Below are positions 18,462-56,457 of a stretch of DNA of 64,000 nucleotides, piece after piece (within the stretch, counting starts at the first letter, position 1; each line of letters begins with the position of its first letter). The position numbers were made by a program, and so were the translations under genes. Source of the stretch: Escherichia phage V18; the sequence record NC_041937.1, one strand, 5' to 3'. Under the pieces are notes generated by a model, which saw only the letters and a program-made list of their open reading frames with translations, made no database searches and was not told the DNA's origin.

Positions 18462-18491
18462 TTGACAAAGCTTGGTTTAGATAGGTATAAT
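18462..18491 (+). promoter_or_regulatory. sigma70-like promoter (TTGACA-18-TATAAT)
   Basis: -35 at 18462-18467, -10 at 18486-18491. Confidence 0.6.
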
Positions 18492-33356: not shown

Positions 33357-33976
33357 TCAGCCAGAAATATCTGAATAGGCCCGATCTGCCCAGTCAGGAG
33401 CCAGTAGCGACTGGAGTGCTGCCAGGCGGACGGAATGGGAATACTTCTCATTCTTATAACAATTCTCAAATATCGAGGCAGTGAGAGAAATTAATAGGCC
33501 AGGCCGTTCACACAGTGGCACAACATTTGCAACCTATCCTGTGGGGATGAATGAGAATACCTATCATTGTGAGAACTATTATCATTACGGGCAATTTAAC
33601 ATAATACCCATTATGCGCACCACTGGCGATACATACAGGGATTGATACCATGAGTTACAGTTTACACACATAACAATTATATTTCTTACTATTTGTGTGG
33701 GATATAGTTAGCAGCCAATAGATTAGATATTGACCTGTAGACTTCCAACCGTCTGGACGTCTAAACGCCCACACACCAAGGGTTATACATACATCGCTGA
33801 ATGTAAACAGGGCCGCAAAAATGCTACCATACCAGTTTGTAAATTTTTCATGCAGCACTTGACAAAGAGGAGAAAAACTTGTCTGACACAATGTCACACA
33901 ATATGACACTTTACACTGGACACACTAGGCACAAAAAAAAAAAACTGCAGTGACTAGGTCACCCCTTCAGGTGTTT

Positions 33977-37490: not shown

Positions 37491-37724
37491 TCAACTATTT
37501 TCAAAAAATTTTTCTGCCGTGATATTCTTCCCGGTGGGGTTCGCCACCTTCAAAATTTTATCATGCACTGGACGCCCAAAAGAATAAGCGCCGTACGCAG
37601 TAAGCCAATAATCCCCGTCAGGCTGTACTATTACCGCCGCATATGGTACGCCTTTTTCGTTTTTGCTGACAAAATAGATCACATTGCCATTAATAGCCTC
37701 AGCGCGTTTAATTTGTTCCATCAT
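37491..37724 (-). CDS. hypothetical protein
   Basis: 77 aa ORF. Confidence 0.4.
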   Translation of the reverse strand: MMEQIKRAEAINGNVIYFVSKNEKGVPYAAVIVQPDGDYWLTAYGAYSFGRPVHDKILKVANPTGKNITAEKFFENS

Positions 37725-37780
37725 GATGATTCACCTATCTTTATTTTTAATAGTTTCAGGCCTTTTTGGCCCCGCCAGGT

Positions 37781-38065
37781 TTATTTATTGATAGCGTGCA
37801 ACGGGAAAGGTACGCCAGGTTGATAGATAACTTTTACAACCTCATCGGGGCAAAAGAAATTACAAAATTCACCCCGATAAGCTTCATCTTCTTTTAATTC
37901 TTCATCAACATACTCAAAAAAGTAGTCGATGCTTGGATAATCCTGACCGGGATTATAGTCAACCATTGTCAGGACTAGTTCAAGATCGTTGCGTAGGATA
38001 TGCATACCTGCTTTTAAGTATTTTGCTTCCATTTCTACTACATCGCCAACGGTAACAATAGCCAT
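37781..38065 (-). CDS. hypothetical protein
   Basis: 94 aa; RBS TAGGAGTTAAAA; leader contains the G17 tract. Confidence 0.4.
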   Translation of the reverse strand: MAIVTVGDVVEMEAKYLKAGMHILRNDLELVLTMVDYNPGQDYPSIDYFFEYVDEELKEDEAYRGEFCNFFCPDEVVKVIYQPGVPFPLHAINK

Positions 38066-42806: not shown

Positions 42807-42834
42807 ATTATAGCGATTTAAGTTAGCTTGTCAA
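42807..42834 (-). promoter_or_regulatory. sigma70-like promoter (TTGACA-16-TATAAT)
   Basis: plus-strand tgtcaa at 42829-42834 and attata at 42807-42812. Confidence 0.5.
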
Positions 42835-45401: not shown

Positions 45402-45728
45402 TCAGCTGTTTTTGTTTTTAGGTTTGTACATGCGCAGAGGTATGGTCGTAACAGTCCATCTCCCCAGCCCTTCCCAGTTCCAGTTGTAGGCATGGTACCC
45501 GGTTATGCATGCACTGCTAGAGTGGTCATAGGCATAAGAGAACGCTATACGCACCAAATGGAACCAGTCTTTCCACGGTTGTGGTCCGTAAGCTTTTCTC
45601 CAACACCGACACAAACTAAATGTCTCAAGAATAGGCAGGATAACAAATCCATACACCGCCACCAGAATAGCCAGCGCAATGATTGTCAGGAATACATACC
45701 CTGCAGTTGAAACGATGATCTCTGTCAT
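45402..45728 (-). CDS. membrane protein
   Basis: 108 aa; N-terminal YVFLTIIALAILVAVYGFVILPIL. Confidence 0.4.
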   Translation of the reverse strand: MTEIIVSTAGYVFLTIIALAILVAVYGFVILPILETFSLCRCWRKAYGPQPWKDWFHLVRIAFSYAYDHSSSACITGYHAYNWNWEGLGRWTVTTIPLRMYKPKNKNS

Positions 45729-45928
45729 TTGTCGTCCCCTTTCTTACGGATATAGATGTGAGAGCCTGCCTGTATATAAATTTCTCGACCATCTTCTGCA
45801 AAGATATGAAATACACGATCACCTTCATACTCGATACGTGATATCTTCATAATGGTCTTTCCACCTGGGATGCGGATCTCGTCCCCCACAGCGATGTTCC
45901 ATGCAGATTTAAGCTTAAACATCTGCAC
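45725..45928 (-). CDS. hypothetical small protein
   Basis: 67 aa ORF. Confidence 0.4.
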   Translation of the reverse strand: MQMFKLKSAWNIAVGDEIRIPGGKTIMKISRIEYEGDRVFHIFAEDGREIYIQAGSHIYIRKKGDDK

Positions 45929-46710: not shown

Positions 46711-46773
46711 AATACATCGCTCTCTGTTAGTTTATGCGTATATTATACACTGCAGTCTTCAGATGTCAACCTC

Positions 46774-47164: not shown

Positions 47165-47252
47165 AGTGCTCTCCTCTCTTAGTTGTTGTGGAAACTATAT
47201 CACCTCAGAAGATGGTCGTCAACACTTTTAACCTTTCATGATTGAAAAGTAT

Positions 47253-47543
47253 TCAGCATTGGGTCCTGGGTAGAACTGGGTATACAGCTAGATTGCCATA
47301 AGCAGTCTCTTTGTCGGCTGCCAGTGCTTGAGGGAACTCACGGGCAATATCTTTCGCTATACCTGCACCCATTGTGTGAAAGCAGTTACAACCGTGGATC
47401 ATGTGGCCTGACCCTTTCTTGAAAATGGAGATTAGATCTCCCTTTACAGTATCAATAATCACGGTATGCCAACTCCTCTTCCGCAATTTCAAAAAACTCA
47501 GTCCAGCACTGTGGCATATTGGAGTTACCGAAGTGGCTTTCAT
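47253..47543 (-). CDS. short protein with TARG1/DarG-type macrodomain-like N-terminal motif (possibly truncated)
   Basis: VKGDL...HGCNCFHTMGAGIAKD resembles the TARG1 block VKGDL...HCISEDCRMGAGIA; only ~96 aa. Confidence 0.3.
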   Translation of the reverse strand: MKATSVTPICHSAGLSFLKLRKRSWHTVIIDTVKGDLISIFKKGSGHMIHGCNCFHTMGAGIAKDIAREFPQALAADKETAYGNLAVYPVLPRTQC

Positions 47544-47877
47544 AGTAAAGGTTCTCACCACTTGGAAGGTAGAAATCTGTTACCTCATAGAATCCACAAT
47601 CGTCGCACTCACCTTCTTCAAACTTGGCCTCAACCTTAATACCGAGGAAGGTAAAAAGTTTATGGATATCTTCAGTTTCGAACTCCCAGTGAATGTTGTT
47701 TTCCGCATCGGTATAGAACTGGATCAGCAGACCATTGTCCAGTTTACCAAAATACTCTGTGAAGTAACTTCCTTCCCAGAAATCTTTATGACAAATAATA
47801 TCCATGCGTTTACCCATAATAATGGTGTGAGCGTTTTGGGCATCGTCACGAATCAGTTTTGGCATTTCATAGCTCAT
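47452..47877 (-). CDS. hypothetical acidic protein
   Basis: 141 aa ORF. Confidence 0.4.
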   Translation of the reverse strand: MSYEMPKLIRDDAQNAHTIIMGKRMDIICHKDFWEGSYFTEYFGKLDNGLLIQFYTDAENNIHWEFETEDIHKLFTFLGIKVEAKFEEGECDDCGFYEVTDFYLPSGENLYYESHFGNSNMPQCWTEFFEIAEEELAYRDY

Positions 47878-48718: not shown

Positions 48719-49153
48719 CTAAAAGTATTCATAGAAGTATCCATCTGGAGCTGGAATTTTTTCATGAATGTAGTAACCAATATATATTCCGGTTTCTCTG
48801 CTACAAGAGTTGTGGGATACCCATTCTTTAAGAACGTTACCATTCATGTCCAACCTCCTTACATTTTTGCACCGTCTACCGCTGGTGCTTCTATGCAACA
48901 GAATATCCTCCGTCTGCTTATCTTTATTTTCTCCCCAAGTCGTTAAACGGATATTATCAAAAGAGTACCCTTTGAAATCATCTATCCTGTCACAAGAAGG
49001 CTTTTTCCTTTTGTCGTATCCGCTGGCTACCCACTGATCATACAACTCTTTGTAACCGTTTAGGTATAGCCACTCCTTAAACTCTTTTTTGGTGTAAGTC
49101 GGAGGAGGGTGACCTCTTTGCTTGCTGTTGCACTTTTGAGCCTTGTACAACAC
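48719..49153 (-). CDS. putative HNH-family endonuclease
   Basis: PSCDRIDDFKGYSFDNIRLTTWGEN resembles the HNH_3 core (DxID...DN...EN). Confidence 0.35.
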   Translation of the reverse strand: MLYKAQKCNSKQRGHPPPTYTKKEFKEWLYLNGYKELYDQWVASGYDKRKKPSCDRIDDFKGYSFDNIRLTTWGENKDKQTEDILLHRSTSGRRCKNVRRLDMNGNVLKEWVSHNSCSRETGIYIGYYIHEKIPAPDGYFYEYF

Positions 49154-50490: not shown

Positions 50491-50855
50491 TATTTGTCTC
50501 CTTGTTCTTCGTTAGTGTTTGCCGTGTGTGCAAACCCTGCCTGAATTAATTTGTCCTGAACTTGAGCCAACAGGCCCATTGCAAAACTTGTGGTCCCAGA
50601 GAGAGCCATCAGCATATCTCGTTGTTGAGCTACCCAACCTAAGGCATAGTCCAAACGACGATATTTTTCTTCTTCGCGCAGAGCCTGAAATAATTGTTCA
50701 GCCTCCGGTTGTTGTGTGAGCTCCTGAAGTCTTCCCATGAAAGAAGAAAGCACTAGCAAAAGAGACACTTGATCTTTACTTAACCCTAAGAAAAATTCTT
50801 GAGGTTGTTCTTGCTCGTTCATTGCAACCGACGTTTGATCGTTCATTTGTTCCAT
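50490..50855 (-). CDS. hypothetical protein
   Basis: 121 aa ORF. Confidence 0.4.
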   Translation of the reverse strand: MEQMNDQTSVAMNEQEQPQEFFLGLSKDQVSLLLVLSSFMGRLQELTQQPEAEQLFQALREEEKYRRLDYALGWVAQQRDMLMALSGTTSFAMGLLAQVQDKLIQAGFAHTANTNEEQGDK

Positions 50856-50938
50856 TATGGAATCTCCGATTTTATTTGAACAACATAGAAGGAGACACTA
50901 TTTTAGCATCCCCTTCTGCAAATTACAATAGGTATTTG

Positions 50939-51184
50939 TTAGCCAATCACTTCAAAAGTTCCCCAATTCCCGTCCAGCAGGCAGGTGATCGGATCCCCAT
51001 CGTCGTCAAAGATTTCAAAGTTTTCAGCATCCAGGATGTGACCCTCGAACACGATACTTTCGTCTCCACCACCAGAAATAACAGCGTATTCCTTACCTTG
51101 AGTCAAGTTTTGACACCCTTTGCCACCAAAACCTACTTCAACACAACGTACTTTCTGTCCTGCGCGAGCAACTGCTTCAGTCAT
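50939..51184 (-). CDS. hypothetical protein
   Basis: 81 aa ORF. Confidence 0.4.
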   Translation of the reverse strand: MTEAVARAGQKVRCVEVGFGGKGCQNLTQGKEYAVISGGGDESIVFEGHILDAENFEIFDDDGDPITCLLDGNWGTFEVIG

Positions 51185-51201
51185 CTTAAGGTCTCCTGAT
51201 A

Positions 51202-51522
51202 TTAATCGTCAAGTTCAAAATAGATTTTAACAGCTTCATCAAAGATTGGAATCCCGATGTTGTTGATAAGCTGCCAAACTACCATATCTTTACCTGGATC
51301 TGGGAGAATGTCAACCTTTCTCCATGCGCTGTATACCCAGTTCGGACCGCCTTCTGCACTAACTGGCAGATTTTCACCAGCTTCTTGTAGATACTTATAC
51401 AGCAAAAGATATTCTGGATACTCTAGAACACTGTCCTCTGTAGTATATAGCAGTTCACGGTATACTTTTAAGAACCCTGCTGGGGTAATGTTTTCAGTCT
51501 TCATTTGCCGCTTCTCCTGCAT
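51202..51522 (-). CDS. hypothetical protein
   Basis: 106 aa ORF. Confidence 0.4.
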   Translation of the reverse strand: MQEKRQMKTENITPAGFLKVYRELLYTTEDSVLEYPEYLLLYKYLQEAGENLPVSAEGGPNWVYSAWRKVDILPDPGKDMVVWQLINNIGIPIFDEAVKIYFELDD

Positions 51523-51676
51523 TCATCAGGTCTGCCATAGCGTCACCCACGAAGAGGACAACCACATCGTTGACAGCGTCAGCATCATCTTTGTTGACGT
51601 TGCTGAATTTAGGACACACAGCAATGATCATATAGACACCGTTACCAACCTGAACTGTCCGTGTGGTGCACATCAT
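51494..51676 (-). CDS. hypothetical protein
   Basis: 60 aa ORF starting ATGATG. Confidence 0.35.
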   Translation of the reverse strand: MMCTTRTVQVGNGVYMIIAVCPKFSNVNKDDADAVNDVVVLFVGDAMADLMNAGEAANED

Positions 51677-51882
51677 GGCGGTATTTGTGCCTTCTTTGAA
51701 GGCGAAGCTTGAAGACGCTCCTCTAAAGTGTTACCGGTAGATTTCAGAAGCGCCAGCTCGTCCAAGGCATAGATGATATCTCCGGAAGTTAGTGTTGCCT
51801 TGCCATCAGACACCATAATCACTCCATCAGCACCGTCAAGCTTAGAGGCTTCAAAGATATCAATATCCCAAATATTTTTCAT
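51673..51882 (-). CDS. hypothetical protein
   Basis: 69 aa ORF, ATGA coupling. Confidence 0.35.
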   Translation of the reverse strand: MKNIWDIDIFEASKLDGADGVIMVSDGKATLTSGDIIYALDELALLKSTGNTLEERLQASPSKKAQIPP

Positions 51883-52214
51883 TACGCTTCCTCGTCGTCT
51901 AAGTAATCATCAAGAGAGGTGAAGATTTCACCGAAGTATTCTAAGATTTCTAGCTCACGTGTGGTGCAGCAAACATAATCTCCTTGGTCGTCCTTAATAG
52001 TGGCCTCTTTACCCAGAACATCTACTTCAAATTCATCGTTCAGCAGGACGGCCCCTGTGTAAACTTTGTCAGCTGTGCAGTCCCGAAAAGCAGAGTCCTT
52101 TTCCAGATAGTCTGGCTTAACCTTGGCTTTAATTCGTTGATATTGTTTGGTCATTGCTGTGGTCTCCTTTCGTTTTGATAGGGCCATTATATTAGGCCCC
52201 ATCACTGTTGTCAA
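51882..52214 (-). CDS. hypothetical protein (paralog of 52218-52472)
   Basis: shared KP(D/E)...D-AF(R/K)DCT...KDD(Q/E)GD. Confidence 0.4.
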   Translation of the reverse strand: MTTVMGPNIMALSKRKETTAMTKQYQRIKAKVKPDYLEKDSAFRDCTADKVYTGAVLLNDEFEVDVLGKEATIKDDQGDYVCCTTRELEILEYFGEIFTSLDDYLDDEEA

Positions 52215-52217
52215 GTA

Positions 52218-52472
52218 TTAATGTTCAGGTTTTACAAAAACTACTTCATTAACAGTGCACCAGACAGAGTCTCCTTCGTCATCTTTAAAGGTAAGGCACT
52301 GTGCTGAGTTTTCCAGCTCATCAATCTCTTCTTGTGATAAAGGGGCCCCTTCTTCCAGAAGGGCTTTTACCAGAGGGTTCTCACAAAACTCTGCTTCATA
52401 AATTGCACCGACTGTGCAATCTTTAAAAGCTCGGTCATTTGCAACGCATTCTGGCTTCAAAGTAATTTTCAT
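52218..52472 (-). CDS. hypothetical protein (paralog of 51882-52214)
   Basis: 84 aa; tandem paralog. Confidence 0.4.
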   Translation of the reverse strand: MKITLKPECVANDRAFKDCTVGAIYEAEFCENPLVKALLEEGAPLSQEEIDELENSAQCLTFKDDEGDSVWCTVNEVVFVKPEH

Positions 52473-52548
52473 CTTGGCAGTCTCCTTAGTTATTTAAAAA
52501 TCAACGCTCTGTTTGTGTGAAGCATCTTATATCTAATCTTACTTCTTG

Positions 52549-52947
52549 TCAATGACTATTTTCAATCAGCCACACAGGGTCGAGGTAGATTTGTTGGCGT
52601 GTTGCCCAATGACAAACTTCATTGTACATCTGCACCTCTTTGTCTGTCAATTCACGAATAGGCTCATCTATACCCTCATTTTTGTGGTAATCCCAGTCGG
52701 CATCGATTTCCCACAGCCATGACTTGTTGTCACCACGCTTACGCACACAGAAGTCACCAGGACGGCCTGCCAGTGCATTTAAGAACTCGTTCTCTGCTCG
52801 CTCTTGAAGAATGCTAAGGAGCAAAACGTTGGAGCATGACCGTAAAATATGCTTCAGCTCACAATCATCAATCTCAACTTCAATACGTTGTTTGACTGTG
52901 TGGGTACCTTTTACTAACATCCTACCTCCTCTAAACGAACTCTGCAA
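52549..52947 (-). CDS. hypothetical protein
   Basis: 132 aa ORF. Confidence 0.4.
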   Translation of the reverse strand: MQSSFRGGRMLVKGTHTVKQRIEVEIDDCELKHILRSCSNVLLLSILQERAENEFLNALAGRPGDFCVRKRGDNKSWLWEIDADWDYHKNEGIDEPIRELTDKEVQMYNEVCHWATRQQIYLDPVWLIENSH

Positions 52948-53125
52948 GGGTTGTGTTGTTCACTGCACCACAGTAAATGGAGTATCCCAGCCCATTAGAG
53001 TGCAGAAACCACGGCGTGCCGAAATTATCTTTCACGTAGACATCGCCGTTGCTTGTAAAGGGCCAATATTCTTCACCAAGGGTGAAATACCTACTCATAC
53101 CCTCAGCCAGATACTTTACTTTCAT
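52931..53125 (-). CDS. small protein of a tandem paralog family
   Basis: LGEEYWPFTSNGDVYVKDNFGTPWFLHSNG. Confidence 0.4.
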   Translation of the reverse strand: MKVKYLAEGMSRYFTLGEEYWPFTSNGDVYVKDNFGTPWFLHSNGLGYSIYCGAVNNTTLAEFV

Positions 53126-53349
53126 AGGTCCTCTTCAACAGCTACAAACTTGGCAAGCAGGGTGGTTCCGTAGATATGATACTCACCGTTTGCCAGATGG
53201 GAGATAAACCAGGCAATCCCTTCCTCGTCTTTAATCATCTTGTTTGCACGATTTTTATCGTAATAAACCTCGTAGGTCTTTCCTTCTTTAAAGAAGGACA
53301 GGTCTGTCATCTTTTCTTCTACAAAAGTAGCTTTAACCAAAGTTGTCAT
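53122..53349 (-). CDS. small protein of a tandem paralog family
   Basis: EGKTYEVYYDKNRANKMIKDEEGIAWFISHL. Confidence 0.4.
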   Translation of the reverse strand: MTTLVKATFVEEKMTDLSFFKEGKTYEVYYDKNRANKMIKDEEGIAWFISHLANGEYHIYGTTLLAKFVAVEEDL

Positions 53350-53720
53350 TGATCGGTCTCCTTCTTGTTAAGTCTGAATACTGCAATAATAGCATTCCCA
53401 AGGTGCAGTGTCAAATCATTTCCAAGATACCACAGCATCCCACGGTCATCTTTAATGAAAGGGTAACAATCTGGTGCCTTCCAGACATTGTACACTTTGC
53501 CAACCTGAAAGAAATCAGGCCCTGTTGGGATTTTAGTTCCAGGCCACACTTGAGATACCTGAACACATTCCACCTGCATAATAACAGGGATAGTCATGGA
53601 TGTAAATGTTTTTGTTGGTTCTACTACCATAAAAGTCTCCTCTTTGCTCAACAACACTTCCATGTGTTGATAGTTTACATTAGTGACAATCACCCCAATT
53701 ACGACCACACAAGTATTCAC
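53346..53720 (-). CDS. small protein of a tandem paralog family
   Basis: VGKVYNVWKAPDCYPFIKDDRGMLWYLGND. Confidence 0.4.
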   Translation of the reverse strand: MNTCVVVIGVIVTNVNYQHMEVLLSKEETFMVVEPTKTFTSMTIPVIMQVECVQVSQVWPGTKIPTGPDFFQVGKVYNVWKAPDCYPFIKDDRGMLWYLGNDLTLHLGNAIIAVFRLNKKETDQ

Positions 53721-56457
53721 CTGTGATCTGGAACGGGACTCCCATCATTTTAGAAGCTTGCCAGAAGCAATGCACCACCATTTCACCCACAGGGCTCCAG
53801 ATAAGCTCAAGCTTTCCGTCATCGTTCAGGATAGGATCGTACACCGTGTTTCCGTCTCTGTCAACCACTTCGTTTCCGTCCTCATCCTTGCGTGCCTTTT
53901 TGTACTTATGACCGTCGAACACATGAAGTTTGGCCTCCTGCTCTGCCTTAAATGCTTCCAGTTCTTCGATTGTGTCGAAGGTGTACACAGTCTTATACTT
54001 CGGTGTGTCAGGGACTTGAAGCTGATATTCGTCATGGTAATAGATAATACGACGAACACCTTCATCGTACCACCCACGCTTCACCATTTGGTGGTGCATG
54101 AGTATCCCAACTAAGTCACACAGCGATGCACCACCATTCTGTTGGTATGCATTAAGTAAAGAGTGTTTAGATCGGGTCCAGATAGCATGACCATCAAAAG
54201 AGTAGATAAACTTCTTACCCGTTGCTTCCCAGAATTTCTCCAGATCTTCTTTACGCCCCTTAAGACCGGGGTTGGCATCCCAAAGTGCATCGATTACCCT
54301 TTGTCCCAACTCTGGAGAGATGTCCAGCATATCTGCAACTTTATCTTTTTGTGCCCCATACATAACCCCATACGTGATAGGTTTACCGTCGTTACGAGAC
54401 ACCTCTCTGCCTGCTACTTTTGTATATGCTTCAGCATTGTTTTGGTGTGCGTCCCCGTTACTTACAACATCATAATACAATCCGTTGTCGAACTCAAAGG
54501 CACCCCAAGCCCCGATAAGCTGCTCTAAGTTGGACCCGTCAATACCGATCTCAAAGTATCCTGGAGGAACACCCCACAGACTACGCATCTCTTTACCCAT
54601 GACCACTTTAGGAGATGGTTTAGGCATGTTTGCACAAATACTGTGTTTCTGTCGGGAAGTGTTTGTTAACCCAGAGCTTTTAGCAGGAAGCTTATGGTCA
54701 ATCTTCAAACGTGGATGATTAAGAAGACCAGTATCAACCTTATCCTCCTTGATTGGATCAAGTACCGATCTGCGGTTTCGCAATGATAACCACAAGACGA
54801 TATCTTTAGCCATCTCTCCGTTCAATTTTTCAAGATTCGGGCATAGGTGTCCAAACGTATCTTTCAGTTGCGGAGAAGTAATAAGTGCCCTAGCTTTTCT
54901 ACGTATTTTCCCGAATACTTCCTTTTTAATCCTTTCGGAGTTAGGAAAGCTTCGGAACTTGTGCACGGTTGTCTGGAACTTAGCATCAGTTTTGTTCCAG
55001 AAGTTGATAATCAGGTCACAATACTCTGACTCTAAAAGCTCGTCCATATATGCATATACTCGTGCATCAACATCTGCATCAGGTAGAGCTTTCTTCTTGC
55101 TGTCTTTAGTTACATCCTTAGTTCTCCACATTGTCGGAAGCCAACCAGCACTGATCAGGTATCGCTTAATGTCGTCCTGGTTGCTGATTTTCATAGGTAT
55201 CTTGCAGTCCGGCATTCGCTTCTGCTGTAGATCACTTATTGCCTGATCCATTAGCTCTTTAGGTAAAGGTTGTGGTGTGGAGGTGCCCTTAATATAGCCT
55301 CTCAAGAAATCAGCCATCTTATCGGGGTCTTTGCAGCCCATCTCTTCACACCATTTTATCCCCATCTTACTGACATCTCCTGTAGAGGTAAATGCTCGCT
55401 TAGGCGGGGCTTTGAACTCTAAAGCGCTCATATCTACAGGATAGCCAAGCTTATCTTTTAACCATTTCCAACCATTATTGGAGATTGTCCCATCTTGGTT
55501 AAACGGCTTTTCAGGGAACTTGGGCCGCTGAGACATTGACAGCTCTTTTAAAGGTAGTTGCGGTTCAACACGATCAGCGATTTCTTTCATCCACGCATCG
55601 CAACGGTCACGTAAAGCAATAGCTCCATCTATGTCAAAATACACACCCTGACGGGCCTGCAGCTCCATCAGGAAGTGCTGCAGCATGCCTCGGCGTAATG
55701 CGTTCTTCCAGGTGATCTTCTTGAACCCTTTCGGCTTCTCTTTGGCAGGATCGTACATAAAGTTCTGCATGTCAGATTTGCCGTAGAATACACCTTTTGA
55801 TTCCGCTACCAGCTCTTTCCAGAGCAGCTCCTGGATGATAACGTCCTCGAATACACGATCCACATACTTCCACAACGGAAGATCGCGCCAGTCATCAATT
55901 TGAACTTTCTGGTTACCAAGGGCGTAGCCCCATGCCATAAGGCCGTGAGGACCAACAGGTTGCATTTTCTTAGTAACCGGGTTGAATACAGCGTCCGGAC
56001 AACCTTTTGGTAAAGGGCGATCAGGCCACAAGATTCGGCTCATAGCCAACGTATCAAACAGGTTAACCTGGTGGTCGTTGATAGTCCCCATGCATTTAGG
56101 ATCACGGAACATATCAAAATGAATACCGGATAATCTTTCCATCAGCATAAAGTCATAACTGTAGCAGTTATGGCAGTTCAAAGCTGTTGGTGACCAGTCG
56201 GAATTGCCTGTAAGCCAACCTTCCAACTCCGAAAAATCTGCTATGCGAACTTCAAAATCTTTATAAAGAGTTTTCTTTGCCAGAATAAAGTTCTTAGCCT
56301 TTTCTATATCCTCCTCGGAGTAGTGTGTGCGGCTATTTAGAGGAAGGAACAGCATAAAACGGTTCTTATTCAGCTCTTTAAACAGACCGCAGTGATAATA
56401 AAGATCTGGGTCTTCCAGCAAACCGGATGACTCAAAATCGAACGACCACATACTCAT
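53680..56457 (-). CDS. DNA polymerase, family A (Pol I/T7-like) with 3'-5' exonuclease domain
   Basis: 925 aa; N-terminal FDFESSGL (Exo I), motif B-like KPITYGVMYGAQ, motif C YYHDEYQ. Confidence 0.9.
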   Translation of the reverse strand: MSMWSFDFESSGLLEDPDLYYHCGLFKELNKNRFMLFLPLNSRTHYSEEDIEKAKNFILAKKTLYKDFEVRIADFSELEGWLTGNSDWSPTALNCHNCYSYDFMLMERLSGIHFDMFRDPKCMGTINDHQVNLFDTLAMSRILWPDRPLPKGCPDAVFNPVTKKMQPVGPHGLMAWGYALGNQKVQIDDWRDLPLWKYVDRVFEDVIIQELLWKELVAESKGVFYGKSDMQNFMYDPAKEKPKGFKKITWKNALRRGMLQHFLMELQARQGVYFDIDGAIALRDRCDAWMKEIADRVEPQLPLKELSMSQRPKFPEKPFNQDGTISNNGWKWLKDKLGYPVDMSALEFKAPPKRAFTSTGDVSKMGIKWCEEMGCKDPDKMADFLRGYIKGTSTPQPLPKELMDQAISDLQQKRMPDCKIPMKISNQDDIKRYLISAGWLPTMWRTKDVTKDSKKKALPDADVDARVYAYMDELLESEYCDLIINFWNKTDAKFQTTVHKFRSFPNSERIKKEVFGKIRRKARALITSPQLKDTFGHLCPNLEKLNGEMAKDIVLWLSLRNRRSVLDPIKEDKVDTGLLNHPRLKIDHKLPAKSSGLTNTSRQKHSICANMPKPSPKVVMGKEMRSLWGVPPGYFEIGIDGSNLEQLIGAWGAFEFDNGLYYDVVSNGDAHQNNAEAYTKVAGREVSRNDGKPITYGVMYGAQKDKVADMLDISPELGQRVIDALWDANPGLKGRKEDLEKFWEATGKKFIYSFDGHAIWTRSKHSLLNAYQQNGGASLCDLVGILMHHQMVKRGWYDEGVRRIIYYHDEYQLQVPDTPKYKTVYTFDTIEELEAFKAEQEAKLHVFDGHKYKKARKDEDGNEVVDRDGNTVYDPILNDDGKLELIWSPVGEMVVHCFWQASKMMGVPFQITGEYLCGRNWGDCH

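Follow-up and report, generated by a model that had tools for sequence, protein, structure and literature searches.

What the small genes packed directly downstream of the DNA polymerase gene of Escherichia phage V18 are, and how they came to stand side by side as sets of similar genes, is the question raised by a 64,000-nucleotide (nt) stretch of the genome of this phage (NC_041937.1; the whole stretch is hereafter called the window). The window comes from an rV5-like E. coli phage of the genus Vequintavirus, and a 3-kb part of it (50800-53800) has 97-98% nucleotide identity to phages navn, rV5_ev168 and FFH2 by megablast. Two families of small genes lie here on the minus strand, directly downstream of the gene for a 925-amino-acid (aa) family-A DNA polymerase (53680-56457), and every gene of both families is annotated as hypothetical protein in public records. 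Genes and open reading frames (ORFs) are named below by their first coordinate, so that family A consists of 53346, 53122 and 52931, and family B of 52218 and 51882. A previous reading of the sequence alone had proposed both groups, had placed the more distant ORF 45725 with the first of them, and had called the repeated local duplication unexplained. The present analysis shows that the block is made up of conserved small accessory genes, which have the orientation of the replication genes and include two old tandem-duplicated families.

Pairwise similarity was assessed by Smith-Waterman alignment against 2000 shuffles, with P values from a Gumbel distribution. In family A, 53346 and 53122 scored 60 (shuffles 21.9+/-3.8; P 1.6e-6) and 53122 and 52931 scored 53 (shuffles 23.9+/-4.6; P 1.7e-4), while 53346 and 52931 reached 35 (P 0.016); blastp among the members gave E values of 2e-5 and 0.003. 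When shallow ortholog profiles of each gene were compared by hhalign, 53122 was aligned with 53346 at 82% probability (E 1e-5) and with 52931 from end to end (E 0.048), and the 53346-52931 comparison gave E 0.054. The trio was also confirmed by an independent route, since all three genes were recovered from 560 window ORFs by an external hidden Markov model (HMM) that had been built only from repeats of outside proteins and from P0090 (described below), with diverged orthologs removed (53122, E 1.7e-7; 53346, E 4e-6; 52931, E 2e-5; best reversed decoy, 0.6). In hhalign, the same external profile matched each family A ortholog set with 86-92% probability and E 5e-7 to 6e-6 (90% and 1.4e-6 for the 52931 set). 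The family A proteins (64-94 aa) are mildly acidic, with isoelectric points (pI) of 5.0-6.5, and share the motifs (F/Y)(F/W)xxGxxY ... (K/x)D(D/E/N)xGxxW. Judged by these comparisons, 53346, 53122 and 52931 are true paralogs, as had been proposed. In some orthologs of 53346 (P0032 and P0033), 11 aa are duplicated internally (CHPFIKEKAPN before CYPFIKDD), which probably explains why certain megablast hits (e.g., in rV5_ev168) come in two pieces and are about 35 nt longer than the query.

The second group was also well separated from its shuffles: 52218 and 51882 scored 98 (shuffles 27.1+/-4.9; P 5e-9), were aligned by hhalign with 97% probability (E 8e-11), and gave reciprocal cross-hits in the PHROG profiles (E 8e-6 and 1.6e-5); they are a second true paralog pair. 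In PHROGs, the five genes of families A and B belong to five separate families connected by weak reciprocal cross-hits. The sequence comparisons upheld the trio and the pair, and failed to uphold ORF 45725: its Smith-Waterman comparisons with family A gave P values of 0.18, 0.59 and 0.76, it was absent among the external-HMM matches listed (E up to ~2.5), it had no match in five profile iterations, and no PHROG cross-hits linked it to family A.

A much wider distribution of the family A domain was revealed when the family A alignment served as query for a profile search that covered 1.84 billion representative proteins exhaustively. The matches were orthologs, two diverged orthologs (P0079 and P0084), the 60-aa protein P0090, and multi-repeat proteins of 179-571 aa (P0081, P0082, P0086, P0088 and P0091) with 2-5 tandem copies of the domain each. 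Other, long candidates (P0078, P0080, P0083, P0085, P0087 and P0089) were rejected as spurious: they are beta-propellers or proteins with internal repeats, and what is amplified in them is a short DxxGxxW-like motif. The resulting superfamily is unnamed and phage-only, has the signature (F/W)TxGKxYxV ... DDxG(D), and occurs as single genes, as adjacent genes or as 2-5 repeats per protein, usually in replication or early modules. Its members outside the genus adjoin genes for D5-type primase-helicases, SNF2 helicases and Prim-Pol proteins, and two multi-repeat genes are sometimes adjacent; the multi-repeat proteins that were looked up (P0081 and P0088) both adjoin phage replication genes. The multi-repeat proteins have the same sequence domain as family A, and a profile from their repeats alone finds the trio and ORF 50939; however, their copies are fused in one polypeptide, whereas family A consists of separate coupled genes with an extra C-terminal strand region. 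Other arrangements were observed on two unrelated phage contigs. On L011 (2550-4668), neighbouring genes encode proteins of 358 and 346 aa with four repeats each; on L010 (61-665), a 60-aa single-domain gene stands beside a 141-aa gene that has the domain N-terminally. The protein L011_10279 is a fusion of the domain with a region marked DUF3310 by Pfam.

ORF 50939, which the sequence-only reading had missed, was matched by the external HMM with E 1.3e-6 and in other superfamily-profile searches with E 3e-6 and 1e-4. When the profile was iterated, it reached E 5e-9 at convergence (best decoys 0.35-1.9 over five rounds), and the window genes kept were exactly 53122, 53346, 52931 and 50939. On this sequence evidence, 50939 is a fourth member of the family A domain superfamily. 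At convergence, family B and ORFs 45725, 24398 and 30230 were in the decoy range. Two genes that are hypothetical in phage Bas49, 24398-24685 (+) and 30296-30547 (+), display a GxxYxV...DDxGD-like pattern and were matched by the external profile with E 4e-4 and 0.04 before being lost on iteration; they may be remote superfamily members in another small-gene cluster. A search of all window proteins against Pfam and NCBIfam placed no paralog above threshold, and the only above-threshold match was DUF7238 on the neighbouring ORF 51202. For DUF7244 (PF23896; gathering threshold 27 bits), 50939 (14.5 bits, E 0.039) and P0091 (21.8 bits) both remained below, and none of the multi-repeat proteins reached the threshold of any Pfam family. 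Word-indexed homolog searches returned nothing beyond close Vequintavirus orthologs.

The gene models underlying these comparisons, which are collected in Table 1, differ from those proposed before for ORFs 53346 and 51882, whose starts had been placed too far upstream. The start of 53346 is ATG 53630, with the ribosome binding site AAAGAGGAGA ahead of it, and the PHROG match to the long ORF covers residues 31-124, the profile beginning at the ATG 53630 residue; the earlier candidate GTG 53720, which is inside the 3' end of the polymerase gene, was rejected. Genes 53122 and 52931 each have their own Shine-Dalgarno sequence, and the start/stop overlaps listed in Table 1 imply that the three family A genes are translationally coupled. 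The two family B genes form separate cassettes, and a sigma-70-like promoter and a ribosome binding site precede each of them; the start of 51882 is ATG 52154, behind AAAGGAGA, and TTG 52214 was rejected, as it belongs to the -35 hexamer of the perfect-consensus promoter listed in Table 1. The gene between the two families is unrelated to them, its protein having no significant match in blastp, external-profile and iterated-profile searches of window ORFs. Across the window, four perfect TTGACA-N16-18-TATAAT sites were found, compared with 0.06 expected by chance (18462-18491 on the plus strand; 42807-42834, 46742-46769 and 52186-52214 on the minus strand), and the 45-57 kb region contained 36 promoter-like sites, most of them on the minus strand, against an expectation of 20.8+/-4.7.

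Table 1. Small genes and promoter-like sites downstream of the polymerase gene, with the related or formerly grouped ORFs (window coordinates)
Feature	Coordinates	Strand	Length	PHROG family	Remarks
Family A gene 1	53346..53630	-	94 aa	phrog_12922	short N-terminal extension, then predicted small beta-barrel domain
Family A gene 2	53122..53349	-	75 aa	phrog_12623	start overlaps gene 1 stop (ATGA)
Family A gene 3	52931..53125	-	64 aa	phrog_12802	ATGA overlap with gene 2
Intervening gene	52549..52920	-	123 aa	phrog_6273	ATG 52920 behind AGGAGG; between families A and B
Sigma-70-like promoter	52524..52552	-			TTGACA-17-TAAGAT, 10/12 matches; upstream of family B gene 1
Family B gene 1	52218..52472	-	84 aa	phrog_12544	pI 4.2, net charge -12
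Sigma-70 promoter, perfect consensus	52186..52214	-			TTGACA-17-TATAAT; upstream of family B gene 2
Family B gene 2	51882..52154	-	90 aa	phrog_11936	pI 4.2, net charge -12.5
Fourth superfamily member	50939..51184	-	81 aa	phrog_4927	pI 4.1
ORF formerly grouped with family A	45725..45928	-	67 aa	phrog_14110	membership not supported

Paralogs within the families have 28-40% aa identity, and their DNA similarity is left only at the KDDxG motif, indicating that the duplications are old. The local tandem duplication that had been proposed holds for the adjacent trio and pair, although the events are old rather than recent and are not unexplained in kind: trio and pair are part of a run of small early accessory genes that evolves fast, and duplication of the family A domain has recurred in many phages, giving tandem genes as well as repeats inside one gene. 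A divergent relative (L008/L009), represented by the NCBI assembly GCA_012894635.1 (a 136.8-kb contig) and the run SRR3715619, has 90-95% aa identity to the window in the polymerase and 77-82% DNA identity in core genes. At the same place it has seven family A genes, followed by the family B pair and the ortholog of 50939; the four additional copies resemble the 53122 type most closely, and those of L008 had no match in any deposited phage genome. Orthologs of these small genes share 43-73% aa identity between the window and this relative, compared with 90-95% for the polymerase. In all six genes, the proportion of nonsynonymous differences (pN) was far below that of synonymous differences (pS), and dN/dS was 0.11-0.19 for the three genes with unsaturated dS. 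Taken together, the low pN, the low ortholog identity and the presence of three versus seven copies imply that the genes are real and constrained, evolve much faster than the core, and are fluid in copy number.

An old origin of the duplications also agrees with the spread of the block: among 116 matching phage records, 114 include 80% or more of the 3-kb stretch. Searches by tblastn of phage genomes with 53122 returned Vequintavirus records only, plus a weak match in Cronobacter phage CR9 (E 0.3) that is inside a 'membrane protein' gene. Neither family was found in the polymerase regions of 4MG, KB57 and F5M1E or in the CR9 locus, where the regions from other genera yielded one weak candidate (L004_2666, E 0.012-0.025).

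Structure prediction suggests what kind of protein has been duplicated. The AlphaFold2 model of 53122, computed from the family A alignment, is a six-stranded barrel with a long beta1-beta2 connection containing a short helix (predicted local distance difference test score, pLDDT, 89; predicted template modelling score, pTM, 0.76). It superposes on Gp54 of Escherichia phage Bas11 (JohannLBurckhardt; PDB 9AXB), which is likewise a six-stranded small barrel with a prominent beta1-beta2 loop. Gp54 is a non-essential 66-aa protein that directly activates the toxin-antitoxin defence system CapRel-SJ46, an activity that its close homologues do not have, and its barrel has been described as a very rare topology (PMC11578894); the authors speculate that its function is the inhibition of another defence system (Zhang et al., Nature 2024, PMC11578894). 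Besides size and fold, the FxxG and GxxW motifs of Gp54 (sequence from MZ501085.1) are in register with those of family A in the best hhalign alignment, and both Gp54 and family A are encoded amid small hypothetical genes, with a promoter placed immediately upstream of gene 54 (PMC11578894). On the other hand, the two have 14% identity and an hhalign E of 0.27-0.42, and Gp54 matches phrog_7421 only, with no cross-hit to the family A PHROGs (phrog_12623, phrog_12922 and phrog_12802); Gp54 has also not been reported in a tandem paralog array, its neighbour bas11_0053 being without evident similarity. Since the fold match is unaccompanied by a significant sequence match, the link to Gp54 is at the fold level only, and homology between family A and Gp54 is plausible but unproven. 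A Foldseek search of BFVD with the predicted barrel returned many uncharacterised proteins of 60-80 aa (template modelling score 0.7-0.8) from Drexlerviridae and other enterobacterial phages, and one genome often encodes more than one of them (four in vB_EcoS_NBD2). In Bas11 itself (L006), ORFs 33759-33929, 37578-37943 and 47201-47653 were weakly matched by the FTxGKxY...DDxG profile (E 4e-4 to 2e-3); the first of these was kept at profile convergence, and gene 54 was without a match.

For family B, 52218 is predicted to form an SH3-like barrel, in a model of moderate confidence (pLDDT 75), with a helical insert of about 23 residues (residues 33-55). The model resembles SH3-like domains such as the NCF2 SH3 domain (2DMO), the Mib/Herc2 domain of HERC2 (9L8Y) and the retroviral integrase C-terminal domain at 4-13% sequence identity; SH3 sequence signatures were not found in 52218 and the helical insert differs, so the predicted likeness would be one of fold class rather than family membership. 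In one database variant of 131 aa (P0065), two-thirds of the 51882 protein, from its N-terminus on, are fused to the C-terminal portion of ORF 51494 (51494-51676). The junction lies in a CTTR microhomology that the two have in common, implying that roughly 300 nt of this block were lost by natural deletion.

That all of these similarities might be due to chance or composition, with no paralog families behind them, has become highly improbable: the 53346/53122, 53122/52931 and 52218/51882 pairs scored above all 2000 shuffles, external profiles recover the trio and not decoys, and the genes are adjacent, of similar length and collinear in alignment. This explanation, which could draw some strength from the 53346/52931 comparison when it is taken alone, is already refuted for the trio and the pair and holds for 45725 only. 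A different question is whether families A and B and 50939 form one superfamily, derived from a single ancestral SH3-like barrel (GxxY...DDxGD) that was duplicated at least six times in this arm. Such a common origin is possible, at somewhat less than even odds. The external repeat profile aligns with the family B alignment in hhalign at E 0.0016 with both motifs collinear, but at a probability of 16%; the N-terminal domain of L011_10279 bridges the two groups (superfamily profile, E 4.5e-8; family B HMM, E 0.011; phrog_4927, 8e-5; phrog_17459, 0.005; phrog_12544, 0.03); 50939 and family B give a Smith-Waterman P of ~0.02; and both models are small beta-barrels. However, the iterated profile converged without family B, whose E values in hmmsearch (0.13-1.5) were within the decoy range, and SH3-like folds arise often.

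The fold and position of the proteins might also point to nucleic-acid-binding accessory factors of replication or transcription, because binding of DNA or RNA is frequent among SH3, Sm, OB and KOW-like barrels, the genes lie between the polymerase and other replication-arm genes, the outside relatives are found in replication modules, and fold-class matches include the SH3 domain of RecD, the integrase C-terminal domain and KOW. This role is nevertheless disfavoured, and we consider it improbable, due to the acidity of the proteins, which is strong in family B and 50939 (81-90 residues with a net charge of -10 to -12.5; pI 4.1-4.2), and due to the fact that the genes were not found downstream of the polymerase in the partial genomes of Seunavirus, Mydovirus and Certrevirus, which have the same replication machinery; divergence much faster than that of the polymerase and variable copy number are also difficult to reconcile with it. 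The same charge, and only the charge, has led us to consider family B, and perhaps 50939, as DNA-mimic-type inhibitors of host DNA-binding proteins, e.g., restriction enzymes. Ocr and ArdA are acidic early proteins, and each family B gene has its own strong sigma-70 promoter; but known anti-restriction families were not matched in Pfam, NCBIfam or PHROGs, family B is predicted to be an SH3-like barrel, and we know of no DNA mimic with that fold, all of which makes this possibility rather unlikely.

The best overall explanation, to which we assign a probability of roughly 0.6, is that two old tandem families of accessory genes arose by duplication and then diverged, while the early, host-directed role proposed for their products has lower odds. 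As the anatomy of the locus suggests, whole gene units would have been duplicated by unequal recombination, and the copies would then have diverged under purifying selection, much faster than the core genes, into paralogs with different or redundant specificities; the number of copies, three family A genes here and seven in the divergent relative, still differs among lineages. At somewhat less than even odds, the proteins would be dispensable protein-binding modules that are expressed early and target host proteins in host takeover or counter-defence, a role suggested by their small size, barrel fold, sigma-70-type promoters, fast divergence, copy-number change and restriction to one genus, and by Gp54 as the one structural relative that has been characterised. 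Like Gp54, they would then be of the kind that host immune sensors can learn to recognise. A still broader proposal would place family A and 50939, and possibly family B too, in a large unnamed superfamily of Gp54-Bas11-type/SH3-like mini-barrels that is among the commonest accessory building blocks of enterobacterial phages, and that expands and contracts, as tandem genes or as intragenic repeats, because its members serve as counter-defence effectors and as targets of CapRel-type sensors, so that the difference between three and seven copies would be a trace of an arms race; we regard this as unlikely at present.

Several points weigh against the explanation by early host-directed accessory families. 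Neither family was found beside the polymerase in three sister genera, represented by partial genomes of the Seunavirus 4MG, the Mydovirus KB57 and a Certrevirus. A sequence link to Gp54 was not found by HMM, hhalign, PDB sequence search or PHROGs (E 0.27 or worse), and small beta-barrels are common, for which reason fold similarity alone is no proof of homology or shared function. The models cover one family A protein (53122) and one family B protein (52218, at the lower pLDDT given above), and early expression is suggested by promoter-like sequences only.

Some further differences between the window and its relatives were observed around the block. Compared with FFH2, the window lacks one G near 51708 (CAAGGCTTC -> CAAGCTTC) in the region 51494-51882 (-), by which a 129-aa phrog_8284 gene (ORF197 of FFH2) is split into ORFs of 69 and 60 aa; the frameshift may be genuine or may reflect an error in sequencing. 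A 144-aa ORF (48719-49153, -) that is located between ORFs 48240 and 49264 matches the C-terminal half of phrog_1035, which is of the endonuclease VII/HNH type (E 7e-24), and FFH2 has only a 62-nt gap at this position. The polymerase gene is intact in the window, whereas that of FFH2 is split by an annotated HNH endonuclease gene and that of L008 by an unannotated 168-aa ORF at the same place. The insertion differences in the polymerase gene and at 48719-49153 suggest mobile homing-endonuclease genes. In addition, 16-18 unannotated GenBank records labelled 'Campylobacter phage' (host Campylobacter jejuni; e.g., MG065655, MG065666 and MG065690) are, over the regions searched, 93-100% identical to the present rV5-like phage of E. 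coli, and their host labels look doubtful.

Tandem paralog arrays of small early genes are a general phenomenon in large lytic phages, and the present locus resembles them in its adjacent short related genes, its variable early region and the difference in copy number between relatives. As small early paralogous genes without assigned function are routine in such phages, no new kind of biology is involved, and the genes are fairly ordinary accessory genes. What is new here is the fold match to Gp54 of Bas11, the fourth member 50939, the repeat-forming domain family, and the difference between three and seven copies; in the literature searched, the domain family, the fold link to Gp54 of Bas11, the alternation between separate genes and intragenic repeats, and rV5 paralogs were all not found. 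If the fold assignment holds, the 'very rare' barrel of Gp54 would be a scaffold commonly encoded by the small genes that lack annotation in phages of E. coli, Salmonella and Klebsiella; three or four copies stand next to each other in the rV5-like genus, and seven in one relative. For the rV5-like phages, which are used in biocontrol of E. coli O157, the locus would then provide testable candidates for host-interaction or immune-trigger proteins, and its diverged paralogs would be a naturally occurring series in which the binding partners of this barrel fold can be sought.

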